Assembly: GCA_903873565.1 (NCBI GenBank)
Contig: CAIQOY010000043.1
Coordinates: 1-39,410, forward strand
Length of the DNA stretch: 39,410 nt
Reading direction: 5' to 3'
DNA from: an uncultured Actinomycetes bacterium
GTDB taxonomy: Bacteria; Actinomycetota; Thermoleophilia; Gaiellales; F1-60-MAGs149
Numbering within the stretch: position 1 is the first letter of the stretch; each line of letters begins with the position of its first letter. Below the pieces are notes generated by a model. That model saw only the letters and a list, made by a program, of their open reading frames with translations. It did no database searches and had not been told where the DNA came from. Shown piece by piece: positions 17,298 through 38,398 of this stretch. The translations under genes and the position numbers were made by a program.

Positions 17298-17326
17298 CGC
17301 CCCGCCGGCCGCGGTAGGGTTCTGAC

Positions 17327-22814: not shown

Positions 22815-23714
22815 CTAGCGGAAGGCGGCCGAGCGGTGCCCGGCGACCGTGGTCTTGAGGACGTGGACGGTGGTCGAGGTGCAGAGGAACAGCGAGTGCC
22901 AGTCGTCGCCCCAGCAGAGGTTGCCGACGACCTCCGCCGAGTTGACGGTGCCGAGGTGCTCGCCCTCCTGGGAGATCACCCACACGCCGCCGGGGCCGGT
23001 GCACCAGAGGTTGCCGGCCTCGTCCATCTTCATGCCGTCCGGCACGCCGTCGGCGTAGACGGGCTCGCCCGGCCACTGGTAGAGCACCTCGCCGCCCGAC
23101 AGGCTGCCGTCGGCGTTGACGGAGAAGCGGCGGATGTTGAGGTCCTCGGTGTCGTTGATCCAGACGGTCTTCTCGTCGTGCGAGAAGCAGAGGCCGTTGG
23201 GCTTGTTGAAGTCGTCGACGACCAGCTGCAGGCCGCCGTCGCTCGTGTAGCGGTAGACGCCGCAGAAGTCGAGCTCGGGCTCGCGCTCCTCGCCGAAGCC
23301 GGGCCAGCGCCCGTACGGCGGGTCCGTGAACCAGATCGCCCCGTCGGAGGTGACCACGACGTCGTTCGGGCTGTTCAGCTCCTTGTCGCCGTAGTGCGAG
23401 GCGATCACCTTGCGCTCCCCGTCCTCGAGGACGACGACGGAGGAGGTCACGTGCTCGCAGAGGATGTGGTTGCCCGCCAGGCAGAGCGTGGTGCCGTTGC
23501 ACTTGTTGGACGGGTGCGCGACCACCTCGACGCCGCCCGCGCGCGTCCAGCGCCGGCGCGTGTCGGCGGGCATGTCGGAGAAGTACAGCGCCTGCTCGGA
23601 GGCCACCCACAGCGGCCCCTCGGTGAAGGTGCACCCACTGGCGATCTGCTCCCACGTGGCGTCGAGATCCACGAGGTCGGCCATGGCCGGGGACACCGCG
23701 GTGACGAGACTCAT
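22815..23714 (-). CDS. SMP-30/gluconolactonase/LRE-family beta-propeller (lactonase-like)
   Basis: TEGPLW, NSPNDVVVTSDGAIWFTDP, PNGLCFS, PDGMKMDEAGNLW motifs. RBS GAGGAGGGAAGAGG. Confidence 0.88.
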   Translation of the reverse strand: MSLVTAVSPAMADLVDLDATWEQIASGCTFTEGPLWVASEQALYFSDMPADTRRRWTRAGGVEVVAHPSNKCNGTTLCLAGNHILCEHVTSSVVVLEDGERKVIASHYGDKELNSPNDVVVTSDGAIWFTDPPYGRWPGFGEEREPELDFCGVYRYTSDGGLQLVVDDFNKPNGLCFSHDEKTVWINDTEDLNIRRFSVNADGSLSGGEVLYQWPGEPVYADGVPDGMKMDEAGNLWCTGPGGVWVISQEGEHLGTVNSAEVVGNLCWGDDWHSLFLCTSTTVHVLKTTVAGHRSAAFR

Positions 23715-23793: not shown

Positions 23794-23806
23794 ATGGTCG
23801 GACCAT
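23794..23806. promoter_or_regulatory. Candidate GntR/FadR-type operator (ATGGTCGGACCAT)
   Basis: Perfect 6+1+6 inverted repeat in the divergent intergenic region between the lactonase operon and the ABC-transporter operon. Confidence 0.6.
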
Positions 23807-23824: not shown

Positions 23825-23853
23825 TTGACACGGCAAAAGGTCAGACCTATTGT
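23825..23853 (+). promoter_or_regulatory. Sigma-70/SigA-type promoter for the ABC-transporter operon
   Basis: TTGACA (23825-23830), a 17-nt spacer, then TATTGT (23848-23853). The spacer contains operator copy AGGTCAGACCT. The downstream 5' UTR holds a C(UUCG)G-capped hairpin (23866-23885) and the RBS GAGGAGGGGAG. Confidence 0.6.
23838..23848. promoter_or_regulatory. Candidate GntR/FadR-type operator (AGGTCAGACCT) overlapping the promoter spacer and -10
   Basis: Perfect 5+1+5 inverted repeat with the same GGTC-N-GACC core as the other copies. Confidence 0.55.
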
Positions 23854-23908: not shown

Positions 23909-24958
23909 GTGTCGGCCAACGAGGGGCTGAAGGCCAAGCATGTCGCGACCGCCGGTCCCCGCGTGTCCTGGTCGAAGGGCACGATCTTCCTTCTCGCCGT
24001 CCTCGCCGTCGCGGTCCTCGGCATCGGCATCCAGGCCGCGAGCGACGCGACCCTGTTCGCCCAGATCACCCTCAACGGCCTCACCCTCGCCGGCCTCTAC
24101 TTCATCGTCGCGAGCGGCTTCACCCTGATCTTCGGGCTGATGCGCGTCGTCAACATGGCGCACGGCTCGTTCTACATGCTCGGCGGCATCATCGCCTTCC
24201 TGGTCCAGGAGCGGATGCTGAAGCCCGACCCGACCAGCTTCGACCTGCCGACGGCGACCTTCGGCTCCTTCGTGCTCCCGCTCGTGATCGCCACGTTCTC
24301 CGTCGCCCTGCTCGGCCTGATCATCCAGCAGGTCTTCCTGCGCTGGAACCAGGGCCAGGAGCTGCGCCAGGCGCTGATCACGATCGCGATCTCGATCATC
24401 GTCGCCGACCAGGCGGTGGCCCGCTTCGGCGGCATCGCGAAGGAGATCTCGGTCCCGATCGAGCGCTCCATCGAGCTGCCGATCGTGGGCAACTACGGGA
24501 CGATGCGGCTGGTCATGCTGCTGGTCGCGGTCGTCGTCGGCCTCCTGCTCCTCGGCCTGATCACCCGCACCCGCTTCGGCATGATCGTGCGCGCCGGCGT
24601 CGACGACCGCCAGATGGTCACCGCGCTCGGCATCGACATCCAGAAGGTGTTCGCCGTCGCCTTCCTCCTCGGCGCCTTCCTCGCCGGCCTGGCCGGCGTC
24701 CTCGGCGGCAGCGTCAACTCGGTCAACAAGGCCGACGACGGCAAGTTCCTGCTGATCTCGCTGGTGATCGTGATCGTCGGCGGGATGGGCTCGCTGACGG
24801 GCGCCGCGATCGGCGCGCTCCTGCTCGGCCTGATCGACTCCTACTCGGACGTCTACCTCCCCGACGCCATCACCAACTACGGCGTGCTCCTGACGTTCTT
24901 CCTGCTCGTGTTCGTGCTCGCGGTGCGGCCCTACGGTCTGTTCGGGAGGCCGGGGTGA
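23909..24958 (+). CDS. HAAT-family (LivH-like) ABC transporter permease
   Basis: LNGLTLAGLYFIVASGFTLIFGLMRVVNMAHGSFYMLGG is the LivH-type N-terminal signature. GTG start after the RBS. Confidence 0.88.
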   Translation: MSANEGLKAKHVATAGPRVSWSKGTIFLLAVLAVAVLGIGIQAASDATLFAQITLNGLTLAGLYFIVASGFTLIFGLMRVVNMAHGSFYMLGGIIAFLVQERMLKPDPTSFDLPTATFGSFVLPLVIATFSVALLGLIIQQVFLRWNQGQELRQALITIAISIIVADQAVARFGGIAKEISVPIERSIELPIVGNYGTMRLVMLLVAVVVGLLLLGLITRTRFGMIVRAGVDDRQMVTALGIDIQKVFAVAFLLGAFLAGLAGVLGGSVNSVNKADDGKFLLISLVIVIVGGMGSLTGAAIGALLLGLIDSYSDVYLPDAITNYGVLLTFFLLVFVLAVRPYGLFGRPG

Positions 24959-25989
24959 TCCCCGCCCGCCTGCAGTGGCCCGTCGGGATCGCGGTCGTGG
25001 CCGTGGCCTGCGTGCTGCCGTTCGTGGTCTCCGGCTTCACGACCAGCCAGATCCTGACGCGCGCGATGATCCTCGGGATCGCCGCCGCGAGCCTGATCTT
25101 CCTGGCCAGCCTCGGCGGCTGGGTCTCGCTCGGCCAGACCGGCCTCTACGGCGTCGCGGGCTTCGCCGTCGGCAACTTCGTCGAGGCGGACGGCGGCTCC
25201 AAGACGTTCGGCATGAACATCTGGCTGGCCACGATCCTGGCCCTGCTCGTGACGGTCGCCGTGGGCCTCCTGATCGGCGCGATCGCGAGCCGCAGCGAGG
25301 GCATCTACTTCCTGATGATCACCCTCGCCTTCGGCGTGATCATCAAGCTCCTGTTCGAGAAGGCGACGGACCTGTCGGGCTTCGGCGGCATCAACCAGAT
25401 CGTGCAGCCGGAGATCTTCGGGTCGGCGCAGCTCCAGCCGGAGCGGATCTACTTCGTCTGCCTCGTCGTCTCGATCGCCGTCTACCTCGGGGTGCGCTAC
25501 TTCGCCCGCACCCCGTTCGGGCTCGCCTTCCAGGGGATCCGCGACAACGCGACCCGCATGAAGGCGCTGGGCTACAACGTGACGCTGATCCGCACGATCG
25601 CCTTCGGCATCGGCGCCCTGATCGCGGGCCTCGCCGGCGTGCTCAACGTCTGGTGGAACACGCAGATCTCGCCGGGCACGATCGACATCGGCCCGCTCAT
25701 CTTCCTCCTGATGATCGCGATCATCGGGGGCCTCTACCGGATCGAGGGCGCCTGGATCGGCGCGCTCATCTACGTGATCCTGGACAACCGCCTGCGCTCG
25801 GTCGAGCTCGTGGGCGAGCGCGTCGCGACCGCGCTCGGGATCATCTTCCTGCTCATCGTGCTGCTCTCCCCGGGCGGCGTGATGGGCATCTACGAATCCA
25901 TCTCCCGCCGCGTGCGACGACCCCCCTCGGGGGACGACGCGCCCGCGGGGGGCGAGGGAGCCGCGGCGCCCGGCGTCGCGGGGGACTGA
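24955..25989 (+). CDS. HAAT-family (LivM-like) ABC transporter permease
   Basis: The GTG start overlaps the preceding stop (GTGA). SLGQTGLYGVAGF, FGLAFQGIRDNATRMKALGYN motifs. The upstream 387 aa of the track ORF are junk. Confidence 0.88.
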   Translation: MIPARLQWPVGIAVVAVACVLPFVVSGFTTSQILTRAMILGIAAASLIFLASLGGWVSLGQTGLYGVAGFAVGNFVEADGGSKTFGMNIWLATILALLVTVAVGLLIGAIASRSEGIYFLMITLAFGVIIKLLFEKATDLSGFGGINQIVQPEIFGSAQLQPERIYFVCLVVSIAVYLGVRYFARTPFGLAFQGIRDNATRMKALGYNVTLIRTIAFGIGALIAGLAGVLNVWWNTQISPGTIDIGPLIFLLMIAIIGGLYRIEGAWIGALIYVILDNRLRSVELVGERVATALGIIFLLIVLLSPGGVMGIYESISRRVRRPPSGDDAPAGGEGAAAPGVAGD

Positions 25990-26032
25990 CGGGGAAAGGA
26001 GGACGGGCCTGAACGATGGGAGATGCGAAGCG

Positions 26033-26061
26033 GACGGGCCCGTGGGACCACGGGACCCGTC
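26033..26061 (+). other. Intra-operon stem-loop 1
   Basis: GACGGGCCCGTGG / CCACGGG(A)CCCGTC, about 12 bp with one bulge. Confidence 0.5.
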
Positions 26062-26074
26062 GGACAACCGAACG

Positions 26075-26094
26075 GGGGCGCACGGGAGCGCCCC
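26075..26094 (+). other. Intra-operon stem-loop 2
   Basis: GGGGCGC-ACGGGA-GCGCCCC. Confidence 0.5.
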
Positions 26095-26125
26095 GCAGCA
26101 CGACCAACCACCACGAGGAGGGAAT

Positions 26126-27568
26126 GTGAGTACAGACAAGAGGCGATGGAAGTGGCTCAGCGCCGCGTTCCTCGCGATCCTGATCGGCGTCGTCGCCGCC
26201 GCGTGCGGTGGCAGCGACTCCGAGACCACCACGGCGGCGGAGGACACCGCGGCGGCTGACACCGCCGCTGCGGACACCGCGGCCGCGGAGGACACGGCGG
26301 CCGCCGCCGGTGGCGAGACGAAGATCGTCATGGGCTTCCTCTCGAACTGCGAGGGCCCGTTCGGTCCCTTCTGGGATGCCACCCTGGCCGGCTACTACAC
26401 CGCGCTGGTGCAGTACGCCGGGGCGACGCCCGTCGATCCCGCCGACCCGAAGGCCGGCGTGACCGGCGCGATGGTCCCGGGCACGGACGTGCCGATCGAG
26501 CTGAACACGAACTACGGCTGCTCGGACGACAAGGCCGACAAGGCCCTGGCGGAGGCCAAGCGCCTCGTCGAGCAGGAGGGCGTCAACGTCCTGATCGGCC
26601 CGCTGTCGGGCGATGAGGGCATCGCCGTGGCGAACTACGCCCTGACGCAGCCCGACGTCACGTTCCTGAACGGCATCTCCGGTGCCCAGGACACGACGCT
26701 GAAGGTGCAGGCCCCGAACTTCTACCGCTTCTTCTCTGACGGTGCTCAGTGGACGGCGGGTCTCGGCGCCTACGCCTACAACGTGCTCGGCTGGCGCACG
26801 GCCGTCACCATCGGTGACGACTACTCGTTCCCGTACACGCAGACCGCCGGCTTCGTCAGCGAGTTCTGCTCCCTGGGCGGGACCATCGAGGAGCGCATCT
26901 GGCCGGCCCTCGGCGAGACGGACTACTCGTCCTACATCGCCAAGCTGCCGAAGGACGTCGACGGGTTCTTCCTCGACGTCGGCGGCACGGGCACGGTCCA
27001 GTTCGTCAACCAGTACACCGAGGTGAACGGCGAGGACTCGCTCCAGGGCAAGGTCATGGGCGGCGCCTTCATCTCGAACCCGCAGATCATCGCGGAGCTG
27101 GGCAACAAGGTGAAGGGCGTCGTGGCCGGCTCGGCCCTGCCGTCCGACGCCACCACGCCGGAGTGGGAGGCCTACGTGGCCGCCATCGAGGCGGCGTTCC
27201 CCGACCAGACGGCCAACGCGGCCAACATCTTCCTGGCCGGCTACTACAACAACACCGTTGCCGCGATCAAGGGCCTCGAGGCCGTGGCCGGCAACATCGA
27301 CGACGCTGCTGCGTACCACGCCGCGCTGAACGGGACGGAGATCGAGACGGGCGTTGGCCCGGTCACGATCGACGGCAACCGCAACGCGGTCATGGACAAC
27401 TTCGTCGTCGAGGTCACCGACACCGGCACCAAGACCCTGTTCGTGGTGCCCGCGGTCGACCAGTCGTTCGGTGGCGCGTTCAGCACCGAGACGCCGAATC
27501 CGGATCGCGAGAACCCGGAGTGCGTCGCGGGCAACCCGCCGCCCTGGGCTGCGTCGATCACCGGCTAG
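26126..27568 (+). CDS. ABC transporter substrate-binding lipoprotein (type-1 periplasmic binding fold, LivJ/Peripla_BP_6-like)
   Basis: GTG 26126 after GAGGAGGG. Signal peptide with lipobox VVAAAC|GG. Ala/Asp/Thr-rich linker. LivJ-like core (KIVMGFLS..., VNVLIGPLSGDEG). Confidence 0.85.
   Translation: MSTDKRRWKWLSAAFLAILIGVVAAACGGSDSETTTAAEDTAAADTAAADTAAAEDTAAAAGGETKIVMGFLSNCEGPFGPFWDATLAGYYTALVQYAGATPVDPADPKAGVTGAMVPGTDVPIELNTNYGCSDDKADKALAEAKRLVEQEGVNVLIGPLSGDEGIAVANYALTQPDVTFLNGISGAQDTTLKVQAPNFYRFFSDGAQWTAGLGAYAYNVLGWRTAVTIGDDYSFPYTQTAGFVSEFCSLGGTIEERIWPALGETDYSSYIAKLPKDVDGFFLDVGGTGTVQFVNQYTEVNGEDSLQGKVMGGAFISNPQIIAELGNKVKGVVAGSALPSDATTPEWEAYVAAIEAAFPDQTANAANIFLAGYYNNTVAAIKGLEAVAGNIDDAAAYHAALNGTEIETGVGPVTIDGNRNAVMDNFVVEVTDTGTKTLFVVPAVDQSFGGAFSTETPNPDRENPECVAGNPPPWAASITG
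26234..26314 (+). repeat. Coding low-complexity repeat (roughly 15-bp units, AAEDT/AAADT) in the lipoprotein linker
   Basis: Encodes AAEDTAAADTAAADTAAAEDTAAAAGG. Confidence 0.7.
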
Positions 27569-27602
27569 GAATCGGGAATTCGAAGGACTGAATGACCGAC
27601 TG

Positions 27603-28403
27603 ATGGCAACGATGTCCGATCCATCGAGCATCGGAGCCGCACCAGGCGCCGCGCCGATCCTCCGCTTGCGGGGGATCGGCCGGCGCTTCGGCGGCGTCCA
27701 CGCCGTCCGCGACGTCGACCTCGACGTGCACGCGGGCGAGCGCCGCGCCGTGCTCGGCCCCAACGGGGCCGGCAAGACCACGCTGTTCAACGTCATCGCC
27801 GGCGAGTTCCCGCCCACCGCGGGCACGGTCGAGCTCTTCGGCGTCGACGTCACCGACAAGCCCGCGCGCGCCCGGGTCCCGCTCGGGGTGACGCGCACGT
27901 ACCAGATCTCCCGCCTGTTCGGCGGGCTGTCCGTGGCCGACAACCTCTACGTCGCCGTGATCGGCGCGGAGGGCGGCCACCTGCGCCCGCTGCGCCTCGG
28001 CAAGGACCGGGCGTTCCGGGCCACGGCCCGCGAGATCGGCGAGCGGGTCGGGCTCGGGCCCGTCCTCGACACCGCCGTCGGCGAGCTCTCGCACGGCGAG
28101 CAGCGCCAGCTCGAGATCGGGATGGCGCTGGCCGGCGAGCCGCGCCTGTTGATGCTCGACGAGCCGGCCGCGGGCCTCGCCCGCGCCGAGCGCGTGAAGC
28201 TGACGGAGATGCTGCTCGGCTTCGACCGCTCGATCACGGTGATCCTGATCGAGCACGACATGGACGTCGCGCTGACCGTCGCCGAGCACGTGACGATGAT
28301 GCACGACGGCCGCGTCGTGGTGGAGGGCACGCCCGACGAGATCCGCCGCAACCAGATGGTCCACGACCTCTACCTCGGACGGGGGCACGGCGGCGATGAG
28401 TGA
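27603..28403 (+). CDS. HAAT-family ABC ATPase (LivG-like)
   Basis: Walker A GPNGAGKTTLF, signature LSHGEQRQLEIG, Walker B LLMLDEP. Confidence 0.9.
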   Translation: MATMSDPSSIGAAPGAAPILRLRGIGRRFGGVHAVRDVDLDVHAGERRAVLGPNGAGKTTLFNVIAGEFPPTAGTVELFGVDVTDKPARARVPLGVTRTYQISRLFGGLSVADNLYVAVIGAEGGHLRPLRLGKDRAFRATAREIGERVGLGPVLDTAVGELSHGEQRQLEIGMALAGEPRLLMLDEPAAGLARAERVKLTEMLLGFDRSITVILIEHDMDVALTVAEHVTMMHDGRVVVEGTPDEIRRNQMVHDLYLGRGHGGDE

Positions 28404-29115
28404 GCCCATCCTCTCGATCCGGGGCCTCAACGCCCACTACGGCGCCGCGCACGTCGTGCAGGACGTCTCCTTCGACGTCCTCGACGAGCCCGTGTGCGTG
28501 ATCGGCCGCAACGGCATGGGCAAGACGTCGCTGTGCCGCGCGCTGATGAACCTCGACCCGCCGACCGCGAGCGGCACGGTGCTCCTGGACGGCCAGGAGA
28601 TCAGCGGCAAGGCGCCGTACGCGATCGCCCGCGCCGGGATCGGCTACGTGCCGCAGGGCCGCAAGCTGTTCCAGTCCCTGTCCGTCGACGAGCACCTGCG
28701 GATGATCAAGTCGCCGCGGCAGGGCCGCTGGTCGCCCGCCGCGATCTACGAGCTGTTCCCGCGCCTCGCGGAGCGCAAGAAGATCAGCGCCACGCAGCTG
28801 TCGGGCGGCGAGCAGCAGATGCTCGCGATCGGCCGCGCCCTGCTCCTGCAGCCGCGCCTGCTCCTGATGGACGAGCCCTCCGAGGGCCTCGCGCCGCGCA
28901 TCGTCGAGGAGCTGGTCGAGTCGTTGAAGGGCTTCGTGCGCGAGGGCACCGGCGTGCTCCTCGTCGAGCAGAACCTCGGCGTGGCCACCTCCGTCGCCGA
29001 GCGCCTGGTCGTGATGGTCGCGGGCGCCGTCTTCACCGAGACGACCGCCACCGCGATGAACGCCGACCCCGAGCTGCAGCAGCGCTTCCTCGGCGTCACC
29101 CGGGTCGAGGGCTAG
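28396..29115 (+). CDS. HAAT-family ABC ATPase (LivF-like)
   Basis: Walker A GRNGMGKTS, signature LSGGEQQMLAIG, Walker B LLLMDEP. It overlaps the preceding gene by 8 nt (ATGAGTGA). Confidence 0.9.
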   Translation: MSEPILSIRGLNAHYGAAHVVQDVSFDVLDEPVCVIGRNGMGKTSLCRALMNLDPPTASGTVLLDGQEISGKAPYAIARAGIGYVPQGRKLFQSLSVDEHLRMIKSPRQGRWSPAAIYELFPRLAERKKISATQLSGGEQQMLAIGRALLLQPRLLLMDEPSEGLAPRIVEELVESLKGFVREGTGVLLVEQNLGVATSVAERLVVMVAGAVFTETTATAMNADPELQQRFLGVTRVEG

Positions 29116-29122
29116 GGTCCCG

Positions 29123-30340
29123 ATGGCCACCGTCGTCCTGATCGGCACCCTCGACACGAAGGGCGCCGAGTACGGCTTCGTGCGCGAGCGCCTGCACGCG
29201 GCCGGCGTCGACACCGTCCTCGTCGACTGCGGCACCGCCGGCGCCCCCGTGATCGAGCCCGACGTCCCCGCGTCGGAGGTCGCGGCCGCGGTCGGCGCCG
29301 ACCTCGCCGCCCTGACCGCCGCCGGCGACCGCGGCGACGCGGTCACCACGATGGCGCGCGGGGCGGAGGCGGTCGCGCTGCGCCTGCACGCCGAGGGCCG
29401 TCTCGACGGCCTGCTGGCGATCGGCGGCTCGGGCGGCACCTCGATCGCCTCGGCGGCCGCGCGCGCCCTGCCGATCGGCGTCCCCAAGCTGATCGTCTCC
29501 ACGATGGCCGCCTCCGACACGCGCCCGATCATCGGCGAGAGCGACCTGATCCTCGCGGCCAGCGTCGTCGACGTCGCCGGCCTCAACTCCCTGTCGCGGC
29601 GGATCCTCGCCAACGCCGCCGCGGCGATGGCCGGGATGGTGTCGCAGCCGGCGCTGGAGCGGGGCGCGGACCGCCCGCTCATCGCCGCCTCGATGTTCGG
29701 GGTCACGACCCCGTCCGTCACGCAGGCGCGCGAGCAGCTCGAGGCGTCGGGCTTCGAGGTCCTCACCTTCCACATGACGGGCACCGGCGGGCGCTCGATG
29801 GAGTCCCTGATCGACGGCGGCTTCGTCGCGGGCGTCCTCGACGTCACCACCACCGAGCTCTGCGACGAGCTGGTCGGCGGCGTGCTGACGGCGGGCCCCG
29901 ACCGCCTGACCGCGGCGGGCCGGCGCGGGATCCCGCAGGCCGTCTCCCTCGGCGCCCTCGACATGGTCAACTTCGGGCCGCGCGAGACCGTGCCGGCCGC
30001 GTTCGACGACCGCACCCTCTACGTGCACAACGACCAGATCACGCTGATGCGCACCACGCCCGAGGAGTGCGCGGCGCTCGGCCGCGAGGTGGCGGCCAAG
30101 CTCAGCGCGGCGACGGGGCCGACCGCCCTGTTCGTGCCGCTCCGGGGCGTCTCGATGATCGCCGTCGAGGGCGGCCCGTTCCACGACGCGGCCGCCGACG
30201 AGGCGCTGTTCGCCGCGGTCCGCGAGGGCGTCGGCCCGAACGTGGAGCTGATCGAGCTCGACCTCGACGTCAACGACCCCGCCTTCTCGAAGGCGATGGC
30301 CGACTGGCTGGAGGCGAGGCTGCGGGAGGCCGGCGCGTGA
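29123..30340 (+). CDS. UPF0261 / Tm-1-like ATP-binding protein
   Basis: [19 protein letters not shown]-terminus, [17 protein letters not shown], and [11 protein letters not shown] are motifs I recognise from UPF0261. About 405 aa. Confidence 0.8.
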
Positions 30341-31164
30341 ACCGCGCGGAGGCCCTCGAGCGCCTCAACGCGACGCGCGCCACGGGCCGCGCGATCATCG
30401 GCGCCGGCGCGGGCACCGGCCTGTCGGCCAAGTGCGCGGAGCTGGGCGGCGTCGACCTGATCATCATCTACAACTCGGGCCGCTTCCGGATGGCGGGCCG
30501 CGGGTCGCTGTCCGGCCTGATGCCCTACGGCGACGCCAACGCGATCGTCGTCGACATGGCCCGCGAGGTGCTGCCGATCGTGCGCGACGTGCCGGTCCTG
30601 GCCGGCGTCTGCGGCACCGATCCCTTCCGGATGATGGACCGCTTCATCCCGGAGCTCGGGCGGATCGGCTTCTCCGGCGTCCAGAACTTCCCCACGGTCG
30701 GCCTGATCGACGGCGTCTTCCGCCAGAACCTCGAGGAGACCGACATGGGCTACGCCCTCGAGGTCGAGGCGATCCGGATCGCGCGCCAGCACGACCTCCT
30801 GACCGCGCCCTACGTCTTCGACGTGGCGTCGGCCGTGGCGATGGCCGAGGCCGGGGCGGACGTGCTCGTGCCGCACATGGGCCTGACCACGAAGGGCTCG
30901 ATCGGCGCCCACACCGCGCGCACCCTCGAGGACTGCGTGCCGCTGATCCAGCAGATGCGGGACGCGGCGGTGGCCGTCAACCCGGACGTGATCGTGCTCT
31001 GCCACGGCGGGCCGATCGCCGAGCCGGAGGACGCCGCCTTCATCTTCGAGCGCACGACGGGGATCGACGGCTTCTTCGGGGCCTCCTCGATGGAGCGCCT
31101 GCCGACCGAGGTCGCGATGACCGAGAACATGCGCCGCTTCAAGGCGCTGGAGATCCGAGGCTAG
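30337..31164 (+). CDS. PEP-hydrolase-like TIM-barrel protein (PF09370-type, the Tm-1 C-terminal-domain homolog)
   Basis: The GTG start overlaps the UPF0261 stop (GTGA). [62 protein letters not shown] motifs. Confidence 0.78.
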
Positions 31165-31173
31165 GAGGAGAGC

Positions 31174-31575
31174 ATGGCCAGCAGGTTCATCATGCACAGC
31201 GAGGTGCCCGTCACGGAGTTCGACTGGGGCAGCGCCGGGATGCGCTGCTCGAAGGACAACACGGGCTGCCAGACGTTCGTCGTCCTGGACGTCGTGCTCG
31301 CGCCCGGCGCGTGCCACGACTTCCACAAGCACCCCGACCAGGACGAGATGATCATCGTCAAGCAGGGGTCGATCACGCAGCACATCGAGGGCGAGTCCTG
31401 CACGCTCAACGCGGGCGACTCCGTCTACCTCGACAAGGACGTCGTCCACGGGTCGTTCAACGACGGCAGCGAGGACGCGCACCTGCAGGTCGTGCTCGCC
31501 CCCGCCATGGGCGAGGGCGGCTACGAGCTCGTCGACGTCTCGGGCGACGAGCCCTGGGCGTCGATGCGCGCCTGA
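31174..31575 (+). CDS. Cupin-domain protein
   Basis: Cupin motif 1 FHKHPDQDEMIIVKQG and motif 2 GDSVYLDKDVVHGSFN. RBS GGAGGAGAG. Confidence 0.8.
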   Translation: MASRFIMHSEVPVTEFDWGSAGMRCSKDNTGCQTFVVLDVVLAPGACHDFHKHPDQDEMIIVKQGSITQHIEGESCTLNAGDSVYLDKDVVHGSFNDGSEDAHLQVVLAPAMGEGGYELVDVSGDEPWASMRA

Positions 31576-31589
31576 CCCGGATCGGCGAT

Positions 31590-31625
31590 GGGGCCCGGTC
31601 GGACCGCGCGGTCCGGCCGGGCCCC
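31590..31625. terminator. 36-nt near-perfect palindrome, bidirectional terminator between convergent cupin genes
   Basis: GGGGCCCGGTCGGACCGC|GCGGTCCGGCCGGGCCCC. All positions pair except one G-U wobble. Confidence 0.6.
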
Positions 31626-31635: not shown

Positions 31636-32028
31636 CTAGCGCTCGACGTGGCCCGCGCCGCCCTGGTCGCCCAGGACGAGGTCGCGCTCGCGGTCGGGCA
31701 CGTGGTCGAGCGGGACGGGGGCGAGGCCCTCGATGAACGTGACCCCGGTCTCGGAGATGAGCTCGTGCTCGAGGCCGCGGTTGATGCAGACGACGTCGCC
31801 CGCACGCACGGTGCGGGTCTCATCCTCGACGGTGATGGTGACCTCGCCGTCGAGGATCACCATCAGCTGCTCGGTCTCGTCGTGGGAGTGGCGCGGCACG
31901 GTCTTGCCGGGCTCGTAGGTGACGCGGCAGAGCAGCATCTGGTCGCCGCCGAACGCGTTCAGGCGCACGCCGGGGAAGAGCTCGAGCGGCTCCTGGCCGT
32001 TCCAGGTCCCGAAGGGGGAGTCGGCCAT
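31636..32028 (-). CDS. Cupin-domain protein
   Basis: ATG at 32028, 3 nt after the upstream stop. Cupin motifs PRHSHDETEQLMVILDG and GDVVCINRGLEHELI. Confidence 0.8.
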   Translation of the reverse strand: MADSPFGTWNGQEPLELFPGVRLNAFGGDQMLLCRVTYEPGKTVPRHSHDETEQLMVILDGEVTITVEDETRTVRAGDVVCINRGLEHELISETGVTFIEGLAPVPLDHVPDRERDLVLGDQGGAGHVER

Positions 32029-32030
32029 CC

Positions 32031-33137
32031 CTACGGGGCGAACAGGACCGCGCTGTCGGCGGAGGCGACCGCGTTGATCGAGAGCTCCTCGTCGTAGCGG
32101 ATGTACTTGCCGTCCGTCCGCGACTCGGGCCTGCCCTCCTCCTTGGCGCGCAGGGCGCGCAGGACCTTCTCGGGCGTGATCGGCATCTCGGTCACCCACA
32201 CGCCGACCGCGTCGTAGATCGCGGTGGCGATCGCCGGCGGCTGGGCGTTGTTGGCCATCTCGCCGATCGACTTGGCCCCGAACGGGCCGTCGGACGACGG
32301 GTTCTCGATGATGATGCACTCGAGCTCGGGGAGCTCCTCCATCGAGGGCACGAAGTACGAGCCGTAGCCGGAGCCGCGGTGGTCGGGGCTCGGGTAGTAC
32401 GGGTACACCGTCTCGAGCAGGCCGAGCCCGAGGCCCTGCATGGCCCCGCCCTCGATCTGGCCCTCGACCATCGTCGGGTTGATCGCGCGGCCGACGTCGT
32501 AGACCTGCGACATCTTGAGCACGCGGACGTCGCCCGTCTCCGTGTCCACCTCGACCTCGGCGGCGCAGGCCGCGTACGAGATCGCCGAGTGCGGCGGCAC
32601 CGTGACGGCCCCCGTCTCGGGGTCGAGGGTGGCGTACTCCTTGAGGGCGGTGCCCTGGCCGGAGATCAGCTCGCCCTTCACGAAGGTGGCGAAGCCGGCG
32701 ATGTCGCCCATCCCGACCTTCTTGTCGGGGGAGCCCTTGACGTGCACCTCGCCGTCGGCGATCTCGAGGTCGCCGGCGTCCACCTCGAGCAGCTCGCCGC
32801 CGATCTCGAGGATGCGCGAGCGCACCTTCTCGGCCGCGAGGCGCACGGCGTTGCCGCCGATGAACGTGCCGCGCGAGGCGAACGTGCCCATGCAGAACGC
32901 GGACGAGTCCGTGTTCGAGGTGTCCATCGTGACCCAGTCCATCGGCACGCCGATGGCGTCGGCGACGATCTGGGAGTGGACCGTCTTGGAGCCCTGGCCG
33001 ATGTCGACGGTGCCGGCGAAGACGTCCACGCGGCCGTCCATCTTGAGCTTGATCCAGGCCTGCGACGGGTCGCCGTTCTGGTTCATGCCCGTCGGGTACT
33101 CGATCGCCGCGATCCCGCGGCCGACTGCCTTGGCCAT
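32031..33137 (-). CDS. Molybdenum hydroxylase (xanthine dehydrogenase/aldehyde oxidase family), C-terminal Moco-binding subunit (NdhM-like, 368 aa)
   Basis: Starts MAKAVGRGIA. VDIGQGSKT and FGAKSIGEMAN (active-site Glu region) motifs. The ATG shares its A with the TGA of the upstream subunit gene (TGATG). The first 424 aa of the 792-aa track ORF are out-of-frame junk. Confidence 0.85.
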   Translation of the reverse strand: MAKAVGRGIAAIEYPTGMNQNGDPSQAWIKLKMDGRVDVFAGTVDIGQGSKTVHSQIVADAIGVPMDWVTMDTSNTDSSAFCMGTFASRGTFIGGNAVRLAAEKVRSRILEIGGELLEVDAGDLEIADGEVHVKGSPDKKVGMGDIAGFATFVKGELISGQGTALKEYATLDPETGAVTVPPHSAISYAACAAEVEVDTETGDVRVLKMSQVYDVGRAINPTMVEGQIEGGAMQGLGLGLLETVYPYYPSPDHRGSGYGSYFVPSMEELPELECIIIENPSSDGPFGAKSIGEMANNAQPPAIATAIYDAVGVWVTEMPITPEKVLRALRAKEEGRPESRTDGKYIRYDEELSINAVASADSAVLFAP

Positions 33138-34507
33138 CAGTGGTCCTCCGGGTTGCCGAGCTGGCCCACGAGGTGCTCGGGCAGGTCGTCGCCCGAGCGC
33201 ATCGCGGCGGTCATGGTGCGGTAGTCGGCCGGCAGCTCGTGGCCGGTCGCCTCCGCGATCGCCTTGACGACCGGGACGGTCGAGGGGTCGGTGTAGACGA
33301 CGCCGTTCGGCGAGGTGTCGCCGAGCCGGTTCGCGTTCTTGAGCCGGAACTCGAGCGGGTCCATGCCGATCGCGCGCGCGCAGCGCTCGATGTGGATCTC
33401 CGTCGCGAACGAGACGCTGGTCACGCCGAATCCCCGCATGGCGGTCGACGGGACCCGGTTCGTGTAGACGACGTACCCGTTGAACTCGAGGTTCGGGATC
33501 GTGTACGCGCCCGTGTGGTGGAAGGAGTGCTTGGTGACGCCGTACGGCGAGAAGCGCGAGTACGCGCCCGCGTCGTGCAGGGTCAGCATCTTGCGGCCGA
33601 GGATCCAGCCGTCCTTCGTGATCGCGTCGGCGACCTCCATGTGCCAGCCGGCGCGGGTCGACGAGCAGAGGAACTCCTCCTCGCGGGTCCAGCGCCAGCG
33701 CACGGGGCGCTGGGCCTTGACGGCGAGGAGGACCGTGATCGTCTCGGAGGCCGTGTCGACCTTGCCGCCGAAGCCGGAGCCGGTCGTGCCGCCGATGAAC
33801 TTGAGCCGGTTGAGCGGCCAGTCCAGGTGCGCGGCGACGACGCCCATCGAGAAGTACATCGCCTGCGTGGCCGAGTAGACCGTGTAGCGGCCGTCGGCCT
33901 CGGGCACGACCTGCGTGACCTGGGTCTCCATCGGCACGTGCTCCATCGGGTACGGCCGGTAGACGCCCGTCACGATGTGGTCCGCCTGCTCGAAGGCCCA
34001 GTCGACGTCGCCCTTGCGGATCTGGCGGCGGTCCATCTGGCCCTCGAAGTCGGGGTACCAGTTCTGGTTGTCGTGCGCCTGCGGGGCGTTCGGCTCGAAC
34101 GCCCTGCGGATGTCGAAGAGCGGCTCGAGCTCCCTGTAGGTGACCTCGATCGCCTCGGTCGCGCGCAGGGCGGTCGCCTCGTCGACGGCCGCCACGGCGG
34201 CGATCGGCTGGCCGAGGTAGCGGACGTGCGTCGCGGCGAGCAGCGGCTCGTCGCCGGGGACGCCGAGCCCCTCGATGTGGCCGTGGACGTTCTTGTGGAC
34301 GTCCGCGTGGGTGACGACGGCGAACACGCCCTCCATCGCCTCGGCCTTCGAGGTGTCGATCGAGAGGATCTCCGCGTTGTGGTGCGGCGAGCGCAGCGCC
34401 TTCGCCCACAGCGTCCCCGGGATGCGCACGTCGTCGACGTAGCGGGTCCCGGCGGTGACGTGGGCGCCGGCGTCGTAGCGCGGCAGCCGCTGGCCGACGA
34501 CCTTCAC
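33137..34507 (-). CDS. Molybdenum hydroxylase, N-terminal Moco-binding subunit (NdhL-like, 456 aa)
   Basis: VGQRLPRYDAGAHVTAGTRYVDD a/b-hammerhead N-terminus, GGTTGSGFGGK, STAMRGFG motifs. The GTG start overlaps the stop of the 2Fe-2S subunit gene (GTGA). Confidence 0.85.
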   Translation of the reverse strand: MKVVGQRLPRYDAGAHVTAGTRYVDDVRIPGTLWAKALRSPHHNAEILSIDTSKAEAMEGVFAVVTHADVHKNVHGHIEGLGVPGDEPLLAATHVRYLGQPIAAVAAVDEATALRATEAIEVTYRELEPLFDIRRAFEPNAPQAHDNQNWYPDFEGQMDRRQIRKGDVDWAFEQADHIVTGVYRPYPMEHVPMETQVTQVVPEADGRYTVYSATQAMYFSMGVVAAHLDWPLNRLKFIGGTTGSGFGGKVDTASETITVLLAVKAQRPVRWRWTREEEFLCSSTRAGWHMEVADAITKDGWILGRKMLTLHDAGAYSRFSPYGVTKHSFHHTGAYTIPNLEFNGYVVYTNRVPSTAMRGFGVTSVSFATEIHIERCARAIGMDPLEFRLKNANRLGDTSPNGVVYTDPSTVPVVKAIAEATGHELPADYRTMTAAMRSGDDLPEHLVGQLGNPEDH

Positions 34508-35025
34508 CGCTCCACCCCCTTGATGGTCGTGTTGGCGCCGACGGCGGTCTCCTCGAGGTCGAAGGTCTCGCCGCGGGCGGCGGCCTGGACGGCCGCGATG
34601 ATCTTGACGTAGCCGGTGCAGCGGCAGGCGTGCCCGCCGAGCGCCTCGACGATCGCGTCGCGGTCGTCGGTCCCGCCCTGCTCGAGGTAGGCCGTGGCGG
34701 CCATCAGGAAGCCGCTGGCGCAGAACCCGCACTGGGCGGCGTAGTGGTGGATCCAGGCCTGCTGGAGCGGCGTCAGCTCGCCGCCGGCGGGGGCGAGGCC
34801 CTCGACGGTGCGGATCGCGGTGCCGCGCGCGGCCTCGACGGGCATCAGGCAGGAGCGGCGCGCCTCGCCGTCGACGATGACGGTGCAGGCGCCGCAGCCG
34901 CCGTGCTGGCAGGAGGCCTTGGGGCTGGTGATCGAGAGATCCTCCCGCAGCACGTGCAGGAGCGGCGTGAGGGGCTCGGCCTCCACGACCTGGGCCGTGC
35001 CGTTGACGGTGAACTCGATGCTCAT
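34504..35025 (-). CDS. (2Fe-2S)-binding small subunit of the molybdenum hydroxylase
   Basis: CQHGGCGACTV...C (plant-type cluster) plus QCGFCASG...CRCTGY (second cluster). The ATG overlaps the stop of the FAD-subunit gene (ATGA). Confidence 0.92.
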   Translation of the reverse strand: MSIEFTVNGTAQVVEAEPLTPLLHVLREDLSITSPKASCQHGGCGACTVIVDGEARRSCLMPVEAARGTAIRTVEGLAPAGGELTPLQQAWIHHYAAQCGFCASGFLMAATAYLEQGGTDDRDAIVEALGGHACRCTGYVKIIAAVQAAARGETFDLEETAVGANTTIKGVER

Positions 35026-35801
35026 GCGGCCTCCCGGAGCTGCTCGAGCGCGCGGCGGACGAGGATGGGCAGGGTCTGCTCGCGGTACCAGGCGGAGGCG
35101 ACCGCGTCGTCGGCGAGCTGGACGTCGGCGAGCGCCGCCCGCCCGGCGGCCTCGGGGTCGTCGGCCTTCGCCTCGGCCGAGGGGAGGCGCAGCCCGTGCG
35201 GGCCGGCGCCGGTCGCGGCGAGGCGGATGCCGTCCGCGCCGCGGACGGCGCTGACCGCGAGGGCCGTGTACTCGTGCGTGTGCTGGCGGTCGAGGTAGGC
35301 GTAGGCGCCGGGCGCCTCGTCGTACGCGACGTCGAGGACCAGCCGGCCGGCCCGCTGCGCCAGGAAGTCCTCGACGGGCTCGGTGCGCTCGCCGCCCTTG
35401 CCGGCGGAGCGGACGTGCGCCCCGAGGGCGATCATCACGCCCTGCAGGTCGCCGCGCGGCGCCTCGAAGTTGGCGGCGCAGAGGTTGCCGCCGACGGTGG
35501 CCTGGCGGCGCACCTCGCCGTCGGCGATGTGCGCGACGCACGACGCGACCGGGTCGGGCAGGCCCGCGAGCTCCGCCAGCGGCGTGCCGGCGCCGATCGT
35601 GACGCGGCCCCCGTCGCGGGCGATGCCGCCGAGGCCGGCGCGGTGGAGCATCAGCGCGGTGGCCGGGCGCTCGAAGCCGAGCTGGATGTTGGGGACGACG
35701 ATCGTGCCGCCCCCGACGACGAGCGTGCCGTCGCCGTCGCCGAACATCTCCACGGCCTCAGCCGGGGACGTCGGGATCAGTACTGCTGGTCCGTGAGCCA
35801 T
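35022..35801 (-). CDS. FAD-binding subunit of the molybdenum hydroxylase (CoxM/XdhB-like)
   Basis: LVVGGGTIVVPN FAD motif, RRQATVGGNL. 259 aa. RBS GGGAGA. Confidence 0.85.
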   Translation of the reverse strand: MAHGPAVLIPTSPAEAVEMFGDGDGTLVVGGGTIVVPNIQLGFERPATALMLHRAGLGGIARDGGRVTIGAGTPLAELAGLPDPVASCVAHIADGEVRRQATVGGNLCAANFEAPRGDLQGVMIALGAHVRSAGKGGERTEPVEDFLAQRAGRLVLDVAYDEAPGAYAYLDRQHTHEYTALAVSAVRGADGIRLAATGAGPHGLRLPSAEAKADDPEAAGRAALADVQLADDAVASAWYREQTLPILVRRALEQLREAA

Positions 35802-35868: not shown

Positions 35869-36624
35869 CTACGGATTGGACTGACCACTTTCAAGTCGGG
35901 CGCGCGCCTCGATGGCCCGCTGGAGCCAGCGGCGGATGTCCTCGAGGTGCTCGCGCATGGCCTGCCCCGCGACCGCGGGGTCGCCCGTCTCGATCGCCGC
36001 GATGATGTCCTCGTGGGCCTCGAGCGTGCGGTCGAGGATGTCCTCGCCCTCCATGATCCGCTCGCGCAGGCTGGCCCCGAGGTGCCAGACCGAGTCGATC
36101 AGCTCGAGCAGGAGCGCGTTGCCGGCCAGCTCGTGGATCGCGCGGTGGAACTTGCGGTCCGCCGCGAGGTTCGCGATGCCGTCCTGGTCGCGGGTGATCC
36201 CCGCGGCGAGGCGGCGCAGGCGCTGCACGTCGCGCTTGGTGGCGCGCTGCGCCGCGAGCTCGGCGGCGCCCACCTCGAGCATGCCGCGCACGTCCATCAG
36301 CTGGCTGGCCGAGGTCGCGTTGCGCTCCACCGCGAAGATCAGCGGCGTGGCGAGGCGCTCGGTGGAGAGGTCGGTGACGTAGGTGCCGGAGCCCTGCCGC
36401 GCGGTCAGGACGCCCATCGACGACAGCGTCCGGATCGCCTCGCGCACGGTGGAGCGCGACACGTTGAGCTGGACGGCGAGGTCCCGCTCGACCGGGAGCC
36501 GGTCGCCGGGGCGCAGGCCGAGGCGCTCGATCATCTCGAGCAGGAGGTCGGCCGTCGCGGTGCCCGTGGCGCCGCGCGGGGCGGCCGGCGCGGTGGGACG
36601 GGTGCTGCGCGTGGACGGCGGCAT
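35869..36624 (-). CDS. GntR-family transcriptional regulator, FadR subfamily (FCD effector domain)
   Basis: HTH region ERDLAVQLNVSRSTVREAIRTLSSMGVLTARQGSGTYV. All-helical C-terminal domain with FHRAIHELAGN. ATG at 36624. Confidence 0.9.
   Translation of the reverse strand: MPPSTRSTRPTAPAAPRGATGTATADLLLEMIERLGLRPGDRLPVERDLAVQLNVSRSTVREAIRTLSSMGVLTARQGSGTYVTDLSTERLATPLIFAVERNATSASQLMDVRGMLEVGAAELAAQRATKRDVQRLRRLAAGITRDQDGIANLAADRKFHRAIHELAGNALLLELIDSVWHLGASLRERIMEGEDILDRTLEAHEDIIAAIETGDPAVAGQAMREHLEDIRRWLQRAIEARARLESGQSNP
35877..35887. promoter_or_regulatory. Imperfect operator-like copy (TGGACTGACCA; one mismatch to the palindrome)
   Basis: Lies in the last codons of gntR, about 75 nt upstream of the FAD-subunit start. 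Confidence 0.3.
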
Positions 36625-36629: not shown

Positions 36630-37112
36630 TCAGCGGGCGCCCTGCTCGAGCGCGTCGAGGAAGAGCGAGGCGCGCAGGTTCCACTCGGACTGGGGGAACG
36701 CCTCCTCGAGCCGGCGCAGCGGCACCTTCGCCTGGTCGACGCCGGTGACGTCGCGGCAGACCAGTTCGATCAGGTTGCCGCCCGGGTCGACCAGGTACAT
36801 CTGGCCGGCGCCGTCCGGCAGGAGGTTCGCCGCCGCGAAGCCCGGCACCTCGACCAGGCAGCCCCGGCGGACCGCCTCGACGAACAGCTCCTCGAAGTTG
36901 TCGACCTCGAGGCCGAGATGGTGGCGGCTGGTCGGCGGCTCGCCCTCGGGGAACAGGTGGACCTGGCGCTGGCCGGCGCGCAGCCACTCCGTGCGCACGC
37001 CGAAGTTCGGTCCGGGGATGTGCTCCATGCCGAGGAAGTCGACGTAGAACGCGAGGGACTCGTCGAAGTCCTTGACGGAGATGCTGACGTGGTTGAGGTC
37101 GGTGACGCCCAT
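36630..37112 (-). CDS. VOC-family (glyoxalase/bleomycin-resistance/dioxygenase) protein
   Basis: LNHVSISVKDFDESLAFYVDFLGME and HHLGLEV metal-ligand pattern. 160 aa. Confidence 0.85.
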   Translation of the reverse strand: MGVTDLNHVSISVKDFDESLAFYVDFLGMEHIPGPNFGVRTEWLRAGQRQVHLFPEGEPPTSRHHLGLEVDNFEELFVEAVRRGCLVEVPGFAAANLLPDGAGQMYLVDPGGNLIELVCRDVTGVDQAKVPLRRLEEAFPQSEWNLRASLFLDALEQGAR

Positions 37113-37137: not shown

Positions 37138-37150
37138 ATGGTCTGACCAC
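37138..37150. promoter_or_regulatory. Candidate GntR/FadR-type operator (ATGGTCTGACCAC)
   Basis: Perfect TGGTC-T-GACCA inverted repeat about 27 nt upstream of the VOC-gntR operon start codon. This implies autoregulation. Confidence 0.6.
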
Positions 37151-38394: not shown

Positions 38395-38398
38395 GGCG

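Follow-up and report, generated by a model that had tools for sequence, protein, structure and literature searches.

We analysed a 39,410-nt stretch of DNA (the window; G+C ~73%), contig CAIQOY010000043.1 of an uncultured Actinomycetes bacterium of the Thermoleophilia (assembly GCA_903873565.1), in which genes were mapped by codon-position G+C and Pfam. The genes of interest encode a UPF0261 protein and a PF09370 TIM barrel, members of two large families found across all three domains of life that together form the plant virus-resistance protein Tm-1. The UPF0261 open reading frame (ORF) starts with ATG and extends from 29123 to 30340 on the plus strand (405 aa), and the PF09370 ORF starts with GTG and extends from 30337 to 31164 on the same strand (275 aa). 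They are joined in the sequence gcgcGTGAacc (30334-30344), where the GTG at 30337 overlaps the UPF0261 TGA stop (30338-30340), and a Shine-Dalgarno-like GGGAGG lies 9 nt 5' of the GTG start. Both the ORF coordinates and Pfam and NCBIfam scores above cutoffs confirmed the original prediction, made from the sequence of this DNA, of a 405-aa UPF0261 ORF and a 275-aa PF09370 ORF sharing a GTGA overlap.

Eight genes at 23909-31575, in the order livHM, solute-binding protein, livGF, UPF0261, PF09370 and cupin, are well supported by sequence features as a single predicted transcription unit. Intergenic gaps across this interval range from -8 to +32 nt, with 7 nt between the stop of the LivF-type ATPase gene (29115) and the UPF0261 start and 9 nt between the PF09370 stop and the Cupin_2 start (31174), and no terminator-like site was seen within it. 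The only sigma70-like match in the 16 kb from 21.5 to 37.5 kb is located 5' of livH (shuffles average 0.6). The gaps, the lone promoter-like site and a terminal hairpin thus agree with the earlier placement of the pair downstream of an ABC importer and upstream of a cupin in one predicted unit, which comprises the following features:

23825..23853, plus strand: sigma70-like promoter TTGACA-17-TATTGT, a consensus match only
23909..24958, plus strand: HAAT-family ABC permease, LivH-like (PF02653, E 1.2e-32)
24975..26012, plus strand: second ABC permease, LivM-like (42% identity to a PF02653-bearing gene of L001, a syntenic locus)
26042..27568, plus strand: solute-binding protein of Peripla_BP_6 type (PF13458, E 8e-36)
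27594..28403, plus strand: ABC ATPase, LivG-like, start codon approximate (PF00005 and PF12399)
28396..29115, plus strand: ABC ATPase, LivF-like (PF00005)
29123..30340, plus strand: UPF0261/Tm-1-like ATP-binding protein, predicted small-molecule kinase subunit (Pfam, NCBIfam and PDB matches)
30337..31164, plus strand: PF09370 TIM barrel ('PEP hydrolase-like'), predicted catalytic partner (Pfam, PDB 2P10, AlphaFold2 (AF2) model and conservation)
31174..31575, plus strand: small metal-binding Cupin_2 protein, third cassette member (Pfam; conservation across flanking cupins)
31589..31625: GC hairpin, 17 bp perfect, terminator-like for both this operon and the convergent one (dG -50.2 kcal/mol)

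The hairpin has a z score of -4.95, none of 200 shuffles was equally stable, and it has no T tract; it lies between the convergent cupin genes and probably terminates transcription in both directions. At the equivalent position L001 carries a shorter palindrome, GGGGTCAGACCCC, with 6-bp arms. The second permease ORF gave no Pfam match at E <= 0.001, and is either divergent or imperfectly bounded. The ligand of the solute-binding protein could not be read from its PDB relatives, which are too distant (best 4ZPJ, 9e-21).

The UPF0261 protein was matched by the Pfam models PF06792 (E 1.8e-60, 204 bits) and PF23189 (E 5.8e-90, 301 bits) against a cutoff of 27, and by NCBIfam NF002674, a UPF0261 subfamily labelled 'hypothetical protein', at 550 bits against a cutoff of 335. 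Phmmer searches of PDB sequences returned Tm-1 (2e-79) and MarK (3e-68; 37.5% identity over 392 columns). MarK (Saro_1862) is a stand-alone UPF0261 homodimer from Novosphingobium aromaticivorans that phosphorylates acetovanillone and other phenols, converting ATP to ADP; the 2025 report in the Journal of Biological Chemistry, which includes a crystal structure, termed this the first catalytic activity for the family (PMC12624787). That activity was demonstrated with an E16K variant ~1600-fold above wild type (PMC12624787). Wild-type MarK has Glu at this position, whereas the window protein natively carries Lys: the ATP-site motif is D11-T12-K13, and K13 occupies the position of both MarK E16K and the ATP-contacting K20 of Tm-1. 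It is invariant in one alignment (A1) and at least 90% conserved in another (A3).

On the acceptor side, the window protein has the UPF0261 fold and ATP site in common with MarK (PDB 9MPY), and the MarK ligands of the acceptor oxygen, G195 (N) and H219, together with the stacking H304, are kept as G193, H217 and H302. Three of the seven residues of the MarK acceptor pocket are kept, and T196, F283, I285 and H348 are replaced by V, M, N and I, respectively; the retained residues and the replacements are both invariant in 25 orthologues. An AF2 model (pLDDT 85) superposed on Tm-1 with a TM score of 0.81-0.86 and on MarK with a TM score of 0.65. Beyond Tm-1 and MarK, a fold comparison of this model with the PDB gave nothing above TM 0.3, and the search for kinase relatives by fold returned only weak matches to enzymes with two Rossmann domains (GT-B glycosyltransferases and UDP-GlcNAc 2-epimerases) and to monoglyceride lipases (TM 0.2-0.3). 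By its sequence, the window protein is a member of the Tm-1 clade with an apparently intact phosphotransfer apparatus and a predicted acceptor pocket more polar than that of MarK, and from the analogy to MarK we infer that it acts as a kinase.

The PF09370 protein was matched by its Pfam model at E 2.8e-129 (430 bits against a cutoff of 33.8) and by PDB 2P10 (Mll9387 of Mesorhizobium loti) at a phmmer E value of 1e-106; its AF2 model (pLDDT 97) reached TM 0.95 to 2P10, with ~60% identity in the Foldseek alignment. 2P10 is an unpublished structural-genomics entry labelled 'putative phosphonopyruvate hydrolase', and it stems from the same kind of gene pair, its gene being adjacent to that of Mll9388 as judged from locus numbering and UniProt naming. 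The next-best Foldseek matches were 2-methylisocitrate lyase, carboxyphosphoenolpyruvate (carboxy-PEP) mutase, phosphonopyruvate hydrolase and PEP mutase (E ~1e-9 to 1e-10), with probability 1.0, TM 0.56-0.61 and 15-17% identity, and NanE, archaeal TIM and Pdx1 were similar. The PEP mutase/isocitrate lyase superfamily (PrpB and others) is thus the best fold match outside the family, and the N-terminal GAxxxxSAK...SG pattern looks similar by eye, but the Mg-binding Asp/Glu residues and the catalytic loop of the superfamily are not recognisable: by inspection, the strands equivalent to those bearing DxD and ED in the superfamily carry GTDP and QNFP. Isocitrate lyase/PEP mutase families gave no Pfam or NCBIfam match and were not found by a profile search of PDB sequences. 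Because no model of these families matched, the 'PEP hydrolase' label expresses no more than an analogy at the level of fold.

Approximately 105 of the 275 positions are at least 97% invariant across 68 orthologues. They include K32, R49, R51, R129, R254, D95, N117, D125, E133, E142, D175 and H180, together with H223-G-G-P in the beta7 loop (HGGP) and G-A-S-S in the beta8 loop (GASS); these loops are typical of phosphate-binding barrels and are a point of difference from the PEP mutase/isocitrate lyase superfamily. In a profile search of the PDB, the beta5-beta8 half weakly matched nitronate monooxygenase, FabK and archaeal TIM (E 0.006-0.04). Judged from these residues, the putative active site is strongly cationic and resembles that of phosphate-binding barrels.

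To place the pair in a wider context, we scanned one genome per GTDB species, recovered at least 599 relatives and tabulated the best 80, whose UPF0261 proteins are 52-68% identical to that of the window. The surveyed taxa were Actinomycetota, Chloroflexota, Acidobacteriota, Planctomycetota, Gemmatimonadota, Poribacteria, Bacillota, Bacteroidota and Halobacteria, and genes were called with a locus-trained codon model that reproduced the database calls of L001, followed by protein clustering and annotation of cluster representatives. Neighbours were counted by locus and by presence in the same tight same-strand run as UPF0261:

PF09370: 73 of 80 loci (69 intact and 4 fragments), same run in 62
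small Cupin_2: 47 of 80 loci (flanking the pair in 39), same run in 33
any ABC ATPase: 28 of 80, same run in 20
HAAT permease or binding protein: 18 of 80, same run in 12 (permease) and 15 (binding protein)
xylose-isomerase-like TIM barrel: 16 of 80, same run in 6
SDR: 15 of 80, same run in 3
Gfo/Idh/MocA: 14 of 80, same run in 3
zinc-dependent alcohol dehydrogenase (Zn-ADH): 12 of 80, same run in 7
molybdenum (Mo) hydroxylase: 10 of 80, same run in 2
VOC: 9 of 80, same run in 4
GntR: 8 of 80, same run in 3
thiamine diphosphate (TPP) enzyme: 8 of 80, same run in 1
FAD oxidase: 8 of 80, same run in 1
amidase: 7 of 80, same run in 2
CUT1 permeases: 7 of 80, same run in 2

PF09370 follows UPF0261 immediately on the same strand at 59 of the 80 loci, and 32 of these 59 junctions have a 4-bp overlap, so the translational coupling noted in the window is conserved. 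Median identity to the window proteins was 60% for UPF0261, 72% for PF09370 and 35% for the cupin. The window cupin has a metal site formed by H51, H53, E58 and H92, with W18, H48, Q69 and N96 invariant among 38 flanking cupins; in the PDB it comes closest to uncharacterised cupins, quercetinase and KdgF (E 1e-4 to 1e-5). The conserved unit is therefore the trio of UPF0261, PF09370 and cupin, usually attached to some importer, and the Mo hydroxylase, HAAT and GntR genes that surround it in the window represent the arrangement of a single lineage. The cupin had been seen correctly downstream of the pair but treated as a boundary, although it flanks the pair in 39 of 80 loci.

Gene order in the trio varies. 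In the haloarchaeon Halostagnicola it is PF09370-cupin-UPF0261 and in Mesorhizobium cupin-UPF0261-PF09370, and a further rhizobial trio lies on pSymA of S. meliloti; all three adjoin sugar-type or peptide-type ABC systems. Two Verrucomicrobiota-type loci (L003 and L004, 1869-13393) have a HAAT-cassette-cupin-Zn-ADH arrangement that lacks the Mo hydroxylase, with LarA_N-like, VOC, HAAT importer, PD40 beta-propeller, UPF0261, PF09370, cupin and Zn-ADH genes in synteny and malate synthase and glycolate-oxidase-like genes nearby. The same block recurs in several Thermoleophilia loci, which points to lateral transfer of the entire cassette.

We then surveyed fusions among representatives of 50%-identity clusters, of which 3343 match PF09370 at E <= 0.001. 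Natural fusions of PF09370 to UPF0261 of the Tm-1 type occur (for example P0121, 754 aa), which sustains the Rosetta-stone argument made for the pair. Tomato Tm-1 (PDB 3WRV/3WRW/3WRX/3WRY) has the same two families in an N-to-C order equal to the gene order of the window, but as a single eukaryotic polypeptide whose only known activity is binding the replication protein of tomato mosaic virus (ToMV), whereas the bacterial window encodes them as separate genes, coupled in translation, within an importer operon. In P0137 and P0178, PF09370 is followed at its C-terminus by an APH-family phosphotransferase (PF01636), a kinase family unrelated to UPF0261, and this independent fusion to a second kinase family supports a division of labour between kinase and barrel. 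Other fusions join PF09370 to an AraC helix-turn-helix (P0176, P0196 and P0252) or to a sigma54 enhancer-binding module (P0254, P0189, P0207 and P0250). Proteins of 403-414 aa with PF09370 were considered as cupin fusions and rejected, being AraC fusions or a truncated UPF0261 fusion.

Residue 223 separates these classes. It is His in 79 of 95 alignable representatives, and Tyr223 is combined with Leu45 in eight, all of them long proteins (403-616 aa). An AraC or sigma54 output domain is present in seven of these; P0260 instead carries at its C-terminus a 145-residue extension that matches no Pfam model. Tm-1-type and APH fusions retain His223 and Tyr45, and the Tm-1-type forms also retain H180, D95 and R129. 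Since regulator-fused copies specifically lack His223 and Tyr45, which partner-type copies keep, we infer that bacteria reuse a dead copy of the barrel as an inducer sensor of the same operon, and the partner-type barrel is very probably catalytic through these two residues. All four DNA-binding PF09370 regulators that could be evaluated lie beside a UPF0261(-PF09370) operon (L090, 5726-9728; L091, 8001-11367; L092, 46-4074; L095, 70-4179). Canonical sigma54 -24/-12 promoters are present 5' of UPF0261 in L095 (TGGCATTGATTTTGCA, 49 nt before the start) and L092, and one sigma54-controlled operon includes a ComB-like 2-phospho-acid phosphatase. P0260 is encoded by the last gene of an acid-sugar operon (L093 and L094, 1642-8245), next to a TRAP binding protein, with a DUF1537 kinase, a class II aldolase-like decarboxylase, a xylose-isomerase-like protein, a 3HCDH protein and an IlvD/Edd dehydratase. 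These two single cases, the P0260 operon and the ComB-like phosphatase, hint at small hydroxy- or oxo-acid ligands.

Based on these comparisons, we tentatively propose, with confidence a little short of even, that UPF0261, PF09370 and the cupin are the kinase-like, TIM-barrel and metal-binding members of a three-gene enzyme cassette placed distally in the importer operon. The N-terminal domain of UPF0261 would bind ATP at D11-T12-K13. The acceptor would be the imported compound or an early product, bound in a pocket of the C-terminal domain by the Gly193 N-H, His217 and His302, and the gamma-phosphate would pass to one of its hydroxyl or enol oxygens to give ADP and a phospho-intermediate, as for the paralogue MarK. 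The PF09370 barrel, with its many invariant Arg and Lys residues and its HGGP and GASS loops, would take the anionic or phosphorylated intermediate and carry out the next chemical step with His223 and Tyr45, and the cupin, through its 3-His-1-Glu metal site, would catalyse an isomerisation or oxygenation that depends on the metal and directly precedes or follows the kinase and barrel steps. In this scheme the order of steps, the catalytic role of PF09370 and the substrate itself are predictions; for the substrate class, we would guess at either a small anionic hydroxy- or oxo-compound or else a hydroxylated N-heterocycle. In AcvAB/HpeHI, phenylphosphate synthase, 5-oxoprolinase and IolB/IolC/IolJ, ATP likewise activates an OH, enol or lactam and a second enzyme uses the phospho-intermediate, and the Iol and Kdu systems combine a cupin isomerase, a kinase and a TIM-barrel lyase. 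All of these are functional analogues only, with folds unrelated to the window proteins. The two-component ATP-dependent enzyme of the original prediction was therefore reasonable, with MarK as precedent, but it needs extension to three components (cupin in 47 of 80 loci).

Several observations weigh against this mechanism. The precedent for kinase activity is an engineered variant of a stand-alone paralogue only 37.5% identical, the pocket residues F283, I285 and H348 of which are replaced by M, N and I in the window protein. Even in the MarK crystal the ATP and acceptor sites are ~25 Å apart, and the mechanism is not understood there (PMC12624787). The case for phosphate binding by PF09370 depends on loop motifs and the weak profile matches (E 0.006-0.04), and the cupin, besides its low conservation (median 35% identity), is missing from 41% of loci. 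We know of no ligand or activity for PF09370, the structure 2P10 included. Neighbourhoods are also heterogeneous: transporters are of the HAAT, sugar, peptide or FtsX type, and the enzymes include sugar-like as well as N-heterocycle-like ones, so that they do not constrain the substrate class.

A broader form of this proposal is possible but rather doubtful, namely that the trio forms one ATP-dependent module for catabolism or salvage, not recognised before, that acts on one conserved small metabolite in bacteria, archaea, fungi and plants, that this would be the native function of Tm-1, and that dead barrel copies (His223 to Tyr, Tyr45 to Leu) would have been made repeatedly into AraC or sigma54 sensors that switch the module on. 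If true, the PF09370 sensor domains would provide a direct biochemical handle for de-orphaning both families.

The surroundings of the operon were examined for evidence of shared control. Operator-like palindromes of the FadR/GntR type, TGGTCnGACCA, occur at four places, all in promoter-bearing intergenic regions:

20638-20648: operator-like palindrome TGGTCGGACCG
20669-21421, plus strand: SDR gene following that palindrome
23795-23805 and 23839-23847: two operator-like palindromes, TGGTCGGACCA and GGTCAGACC, in the divergent SMP30-livH promoter region
37139..37149: operator-like palindrome TGGTCTGACCA, 5' of the glyoxalase, GntR and Mo hydroxylase genes

Upstream of livH, the palindrome at 23839-23847 overlaps the promoter-like site in its spacer and -10 element. 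L001, whose proteins are ~80% identical, has the motif at the same four promoter positions, and this shared placement may be read as a phylogenetic footprint. A fifth exact match to the core, GGTCGGACC at 31597, was ruled out as an operator, being part of the 17-bp terminator-like hairpin. The genes around these sites are as follows:

21771-22184, minus strand: RidA, divergent operon (Pfam)
22188-22805, minus strand: isochorismatase-family hydrolase, divergent operon (Pfam)
22815-23714, minus strand: SMP30/gluconolactonase, divergent operon (Pfam)
31636-32052, minus strand: second cupin, convergent operon (Pfam)
32031-33140, minus strand: NdhM-like part of the Mo hydroxylase large subunit (Pfam, PDB)
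33137-34510, minus strand: NdhL-like part of the Mo hydroxylase large subunit (Pfam, PDB)
34504-35025, minus strand: Mo hydroxylase 2Fe-2S subunit
35022-35801, minus strand: Mo hydroxylase FAD subunit
35869..36600, minus strand: GntR/FCD regulator, LldR/PdhR/GlcC-like, candidate repressor, start codon approximate (PF00392 and PF07729)
36630..37112, minus strand: VOC/glyoxalase-fold protein, first gene past the 37139 operator (PF00903)

The top PDB matches of the split Mo-subunit ORFs are 3HRD_A (2e-60) and 3HRD_B (6e-53), which are NdhL and NdhM of the nicotinate dehydrogenase (NdhFSLM type) of Eubacterium barkeri, and the unusual L/M split of the large subunit is common to both enzymes. Specific names for the context enzymes were not adopted, as every NCBIfam equivalog score fell below cutoff (for the Mo hydroxylase, far below); the best match of the GntR/FCD regulator was LldR (8e-39), and the isochorismatase-family and RidA proteins matched RutB/BiuH-like and Rid family models. 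From the motif positions, the importer operon appears to be co-repressed by a FadR-type GntR regulator together with the NdhLM-like Mo hydroxylase operon and the lactonase/amidohydrolase/RidA operon. The claim that the pair is embedded in a regulon thus finds support for this lineage, where the predicted palindromes are conserved at orthologous promoters, and for this metagenome-assembled genome such a FadR-type regulon would link the importer, the cassette and the nicotinate-dehydrogenase-like hydroxylase. Linkage beyond the lineage divided the original prediction: PF09370 and UPF0261 co-occur at 73 of 80 loci, but Mo hydroxylase (10), HAAT (18) and GntR (8) genes are lineage-specific, and catabolic linkage failed as a general rule. 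Because of these low counts, the Mo hydroxylase, HAAT and GntR context alone cannot define the chemistry of the pair.

Other explanations share parts of this evidence. One, which we consider unlikely, is an isomerase-kinase-lyase module for a sugar-acid-like keto acid that follows IolB/IolC/IolJ or KduI/KdgK/KdgA logic: the cupin would isomerise, UPF0261 would phosphorylate an alcohol OH and the barrel, as a remote isocitrate lyase/PEP mutase relative, would cleave the phospho-keto-acid to central metabolites. The closest PF09370 folds after 2P10 (2-methylisocitrate lyase, phosphonopyruvate hydrolase and PEP mutase) and the weak similarity of the cupin to KdgF fit it, but the barrel has no invariant Lys for a Schiff base, no Pfam match to isocitrate lyase or PEP mutase and no recognisable Asp/Glu metal ligands or K(K/R)CGH loop. 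Frequent neighbours agree with such a module, namely Gfo/Idh/MocA (14 loci), xylose-isomerase-like TIM barrels (16), CUT1 permeases (7), TPP enzymes (8), MR/MLE dehydratases (4), transketolase/transaldolase (2), aldehyde dehydrogenases (5) and malate synthase with FAD oxidase, as does the Tyr223-type protein that closes the acid-sugar operon with its DUF1537 kinase. The window regulon itself has an SMP30 lactonase, an SDR and an LldR/GlcC-like GntR, yet it contains no sugar permeases, its neighbours look N-heterocycle-oriented, and the acceptor of MarK is a phenol rather than a sugar. That N-heterocycle orientation is taken up in the alternative of ATP-dependent opening of a lactam or cyclic amide by 5-oxoprolinase or N-methylhydantoinase logic, in which UPF0261 would O-phosphorylate the lactim tautomer of the hydroxylated N-heterocycle produced by the NdhLM-like Mo hydroxylase and PF09370 would hydrolyse the activated ring. 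It draws on the E. barkeri-type split of the Mo hydroxylase, for which nicotinate dehydrogenase is the best PDB match of both halves, on its apparent co-regulation with the importer operon through shared operators, and on the nearby isochorismatase-type amidohydrolase and RidA (with an amidase in 7 loci). In five loci the partner of a UPF0261 paralogue is a cyclic amidohydrolase of the creatininase family, and a pyridone or lactim resembles the planar ring OH accepted by MarK. We nevertheless hold this version to be distinctly unlikely: only 10 of 80 species have a Mo hydroxylase close to the pair, N-heterocycle enzymes are absent from many loci (the two-gene sigma54-controlled operons of Firmicutes among them), and PF09370 is unlike known amidohydrolases.

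Transient phenol activation of the MarK kind on a phenolic or aromatic substrate would make PF09370 a phospho-aryl processing enzyme or phosphatase, or a PEP-carboxylase-like carboxylase, and the cupin a ring-cleaving dioxygenase. In its favour, MarK itself is the precedent (PMC12624787), and the window protein conserves G193, H217 and the stacking H302. Aromatic acids are known ligands of Peripla_BP_6 binding proteins, the cupin shows weak similarity to quercetinase, and one sigma54-controlled operon has the ComB-like phosphatase. MarK, however, has neither a PF09370 nor a cupin partner and belongs to an acvCDEF carboxylase/phosphatase operon, whereas the window gene is coupled to PF09370, and Pfam detected no acvCDEF/hpeCBAD-type biotin-carboxylase genes and no aromatic ring-cleavage pathway among the called ORFs of the window. 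With the hydrophobic F283 and I285 replaced by Met and an invariant Asn, and with the family occurring in plants, fungi and gut anaerobes, we judge this explanation improbable. Least probable of all is a regulatory pair in which PF09370 is a non-catalytic ligand-sensing subunit that gates the ATPase or kinase. PF09370 does serve AraC and sigma54 regulators as an N-terminal sensor domain, and its historical name is 'TIM-barrel signal transduction protein' (PMC5028733), but it is specifically in the regulator-fused copies that His223 and Tyr45 are missing, and nearly all partner-type copies retain both; a pseudoenzyme sensor derived from an enzyme would show just this pattern. The pair also stands at the end of importer operons together with the cupin. 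A purely regulatory barrel is thus disfavoured, and the keto-acid, lactam and phenol versions are not separable with present data.

Considering what was already published, the pairing of UPF0261 with a TIM barrel and its fusion in plant Tm-1-like proteins were described in 2016 (PMC5028733), and the COG5441-COG5564 link has a STRING score of 0.988 (PMC8963296), so the linkage itself is known. The statement that neither family has a bacterial function no longer applies to UPF0261, for which MarK provides one (PMC12624787), and still applies to PF09370: our literature search found no function for it or for the UPF0261-PF09370 pair. Nor was a function found for a close orthologue of the window proteins, MarK being stand-alone and only 37.5% identical. 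The window genes are a typical instance of a known gene pair that is widespread and has yet to be characterised, and they make a sound lead but not a unique one. The comparative work narrows its function through the trio with a metal cupin and through a kinase-like half that keeps the MarK phosphotransfer residues, while the window locus itself gives no solution; cultured organisms and sensor paralogues are better experimental entry points, and pseudoenzyme barrel copies serving as dedicated sensors suggest a practical route to the ligand.

In five of the surveyed loci a second UPF0261 paralogue, 38-45% identical and with TLDTKG kept, adjoins the main trio in a module of its own (L015, 3924-9117; L033, 4354-8884; L031, 12473-16942; L029, 2-2902; L042, 3-1151). 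The order in this module is a xylose-isomerase-like TIM barrel, UPF0261, a creatininase-family (PF02633) hydrolase and an FAD-linked oxidase, often with 4-bp overlaps; protein cluster c30, considered as a divergent PF09370, was ruled out and belongs to the creatininase family. Because of these modules and of MarK with its acvCDEF partners, the sequence data fit a view of UPF0261 as a family of ATP-using activators that may pass their product to varied second enzymes.

Three further features adjoin the regulon or lie near its right edge:

18080 to ~19200, minus strand: Old Yellow Enzyme (OYE) flavoprotein, adjoining the regulon
19252-20493, minus strand: MFS transporter, adjoining the regulon
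37192-39367, minus strand: MFS transporter and epimerase

The left part of the window (1-18000) holds unrelated housekeeping genes, among them hemC, a hemD/cobA fusion, ccm cytochrome c maturation genes and tatC, along with genes for histidine ammonia-lyase, an imidazolonepropionase-like protein, a choloylglycine-hydrolase-family protein and two large amidohydrolases.

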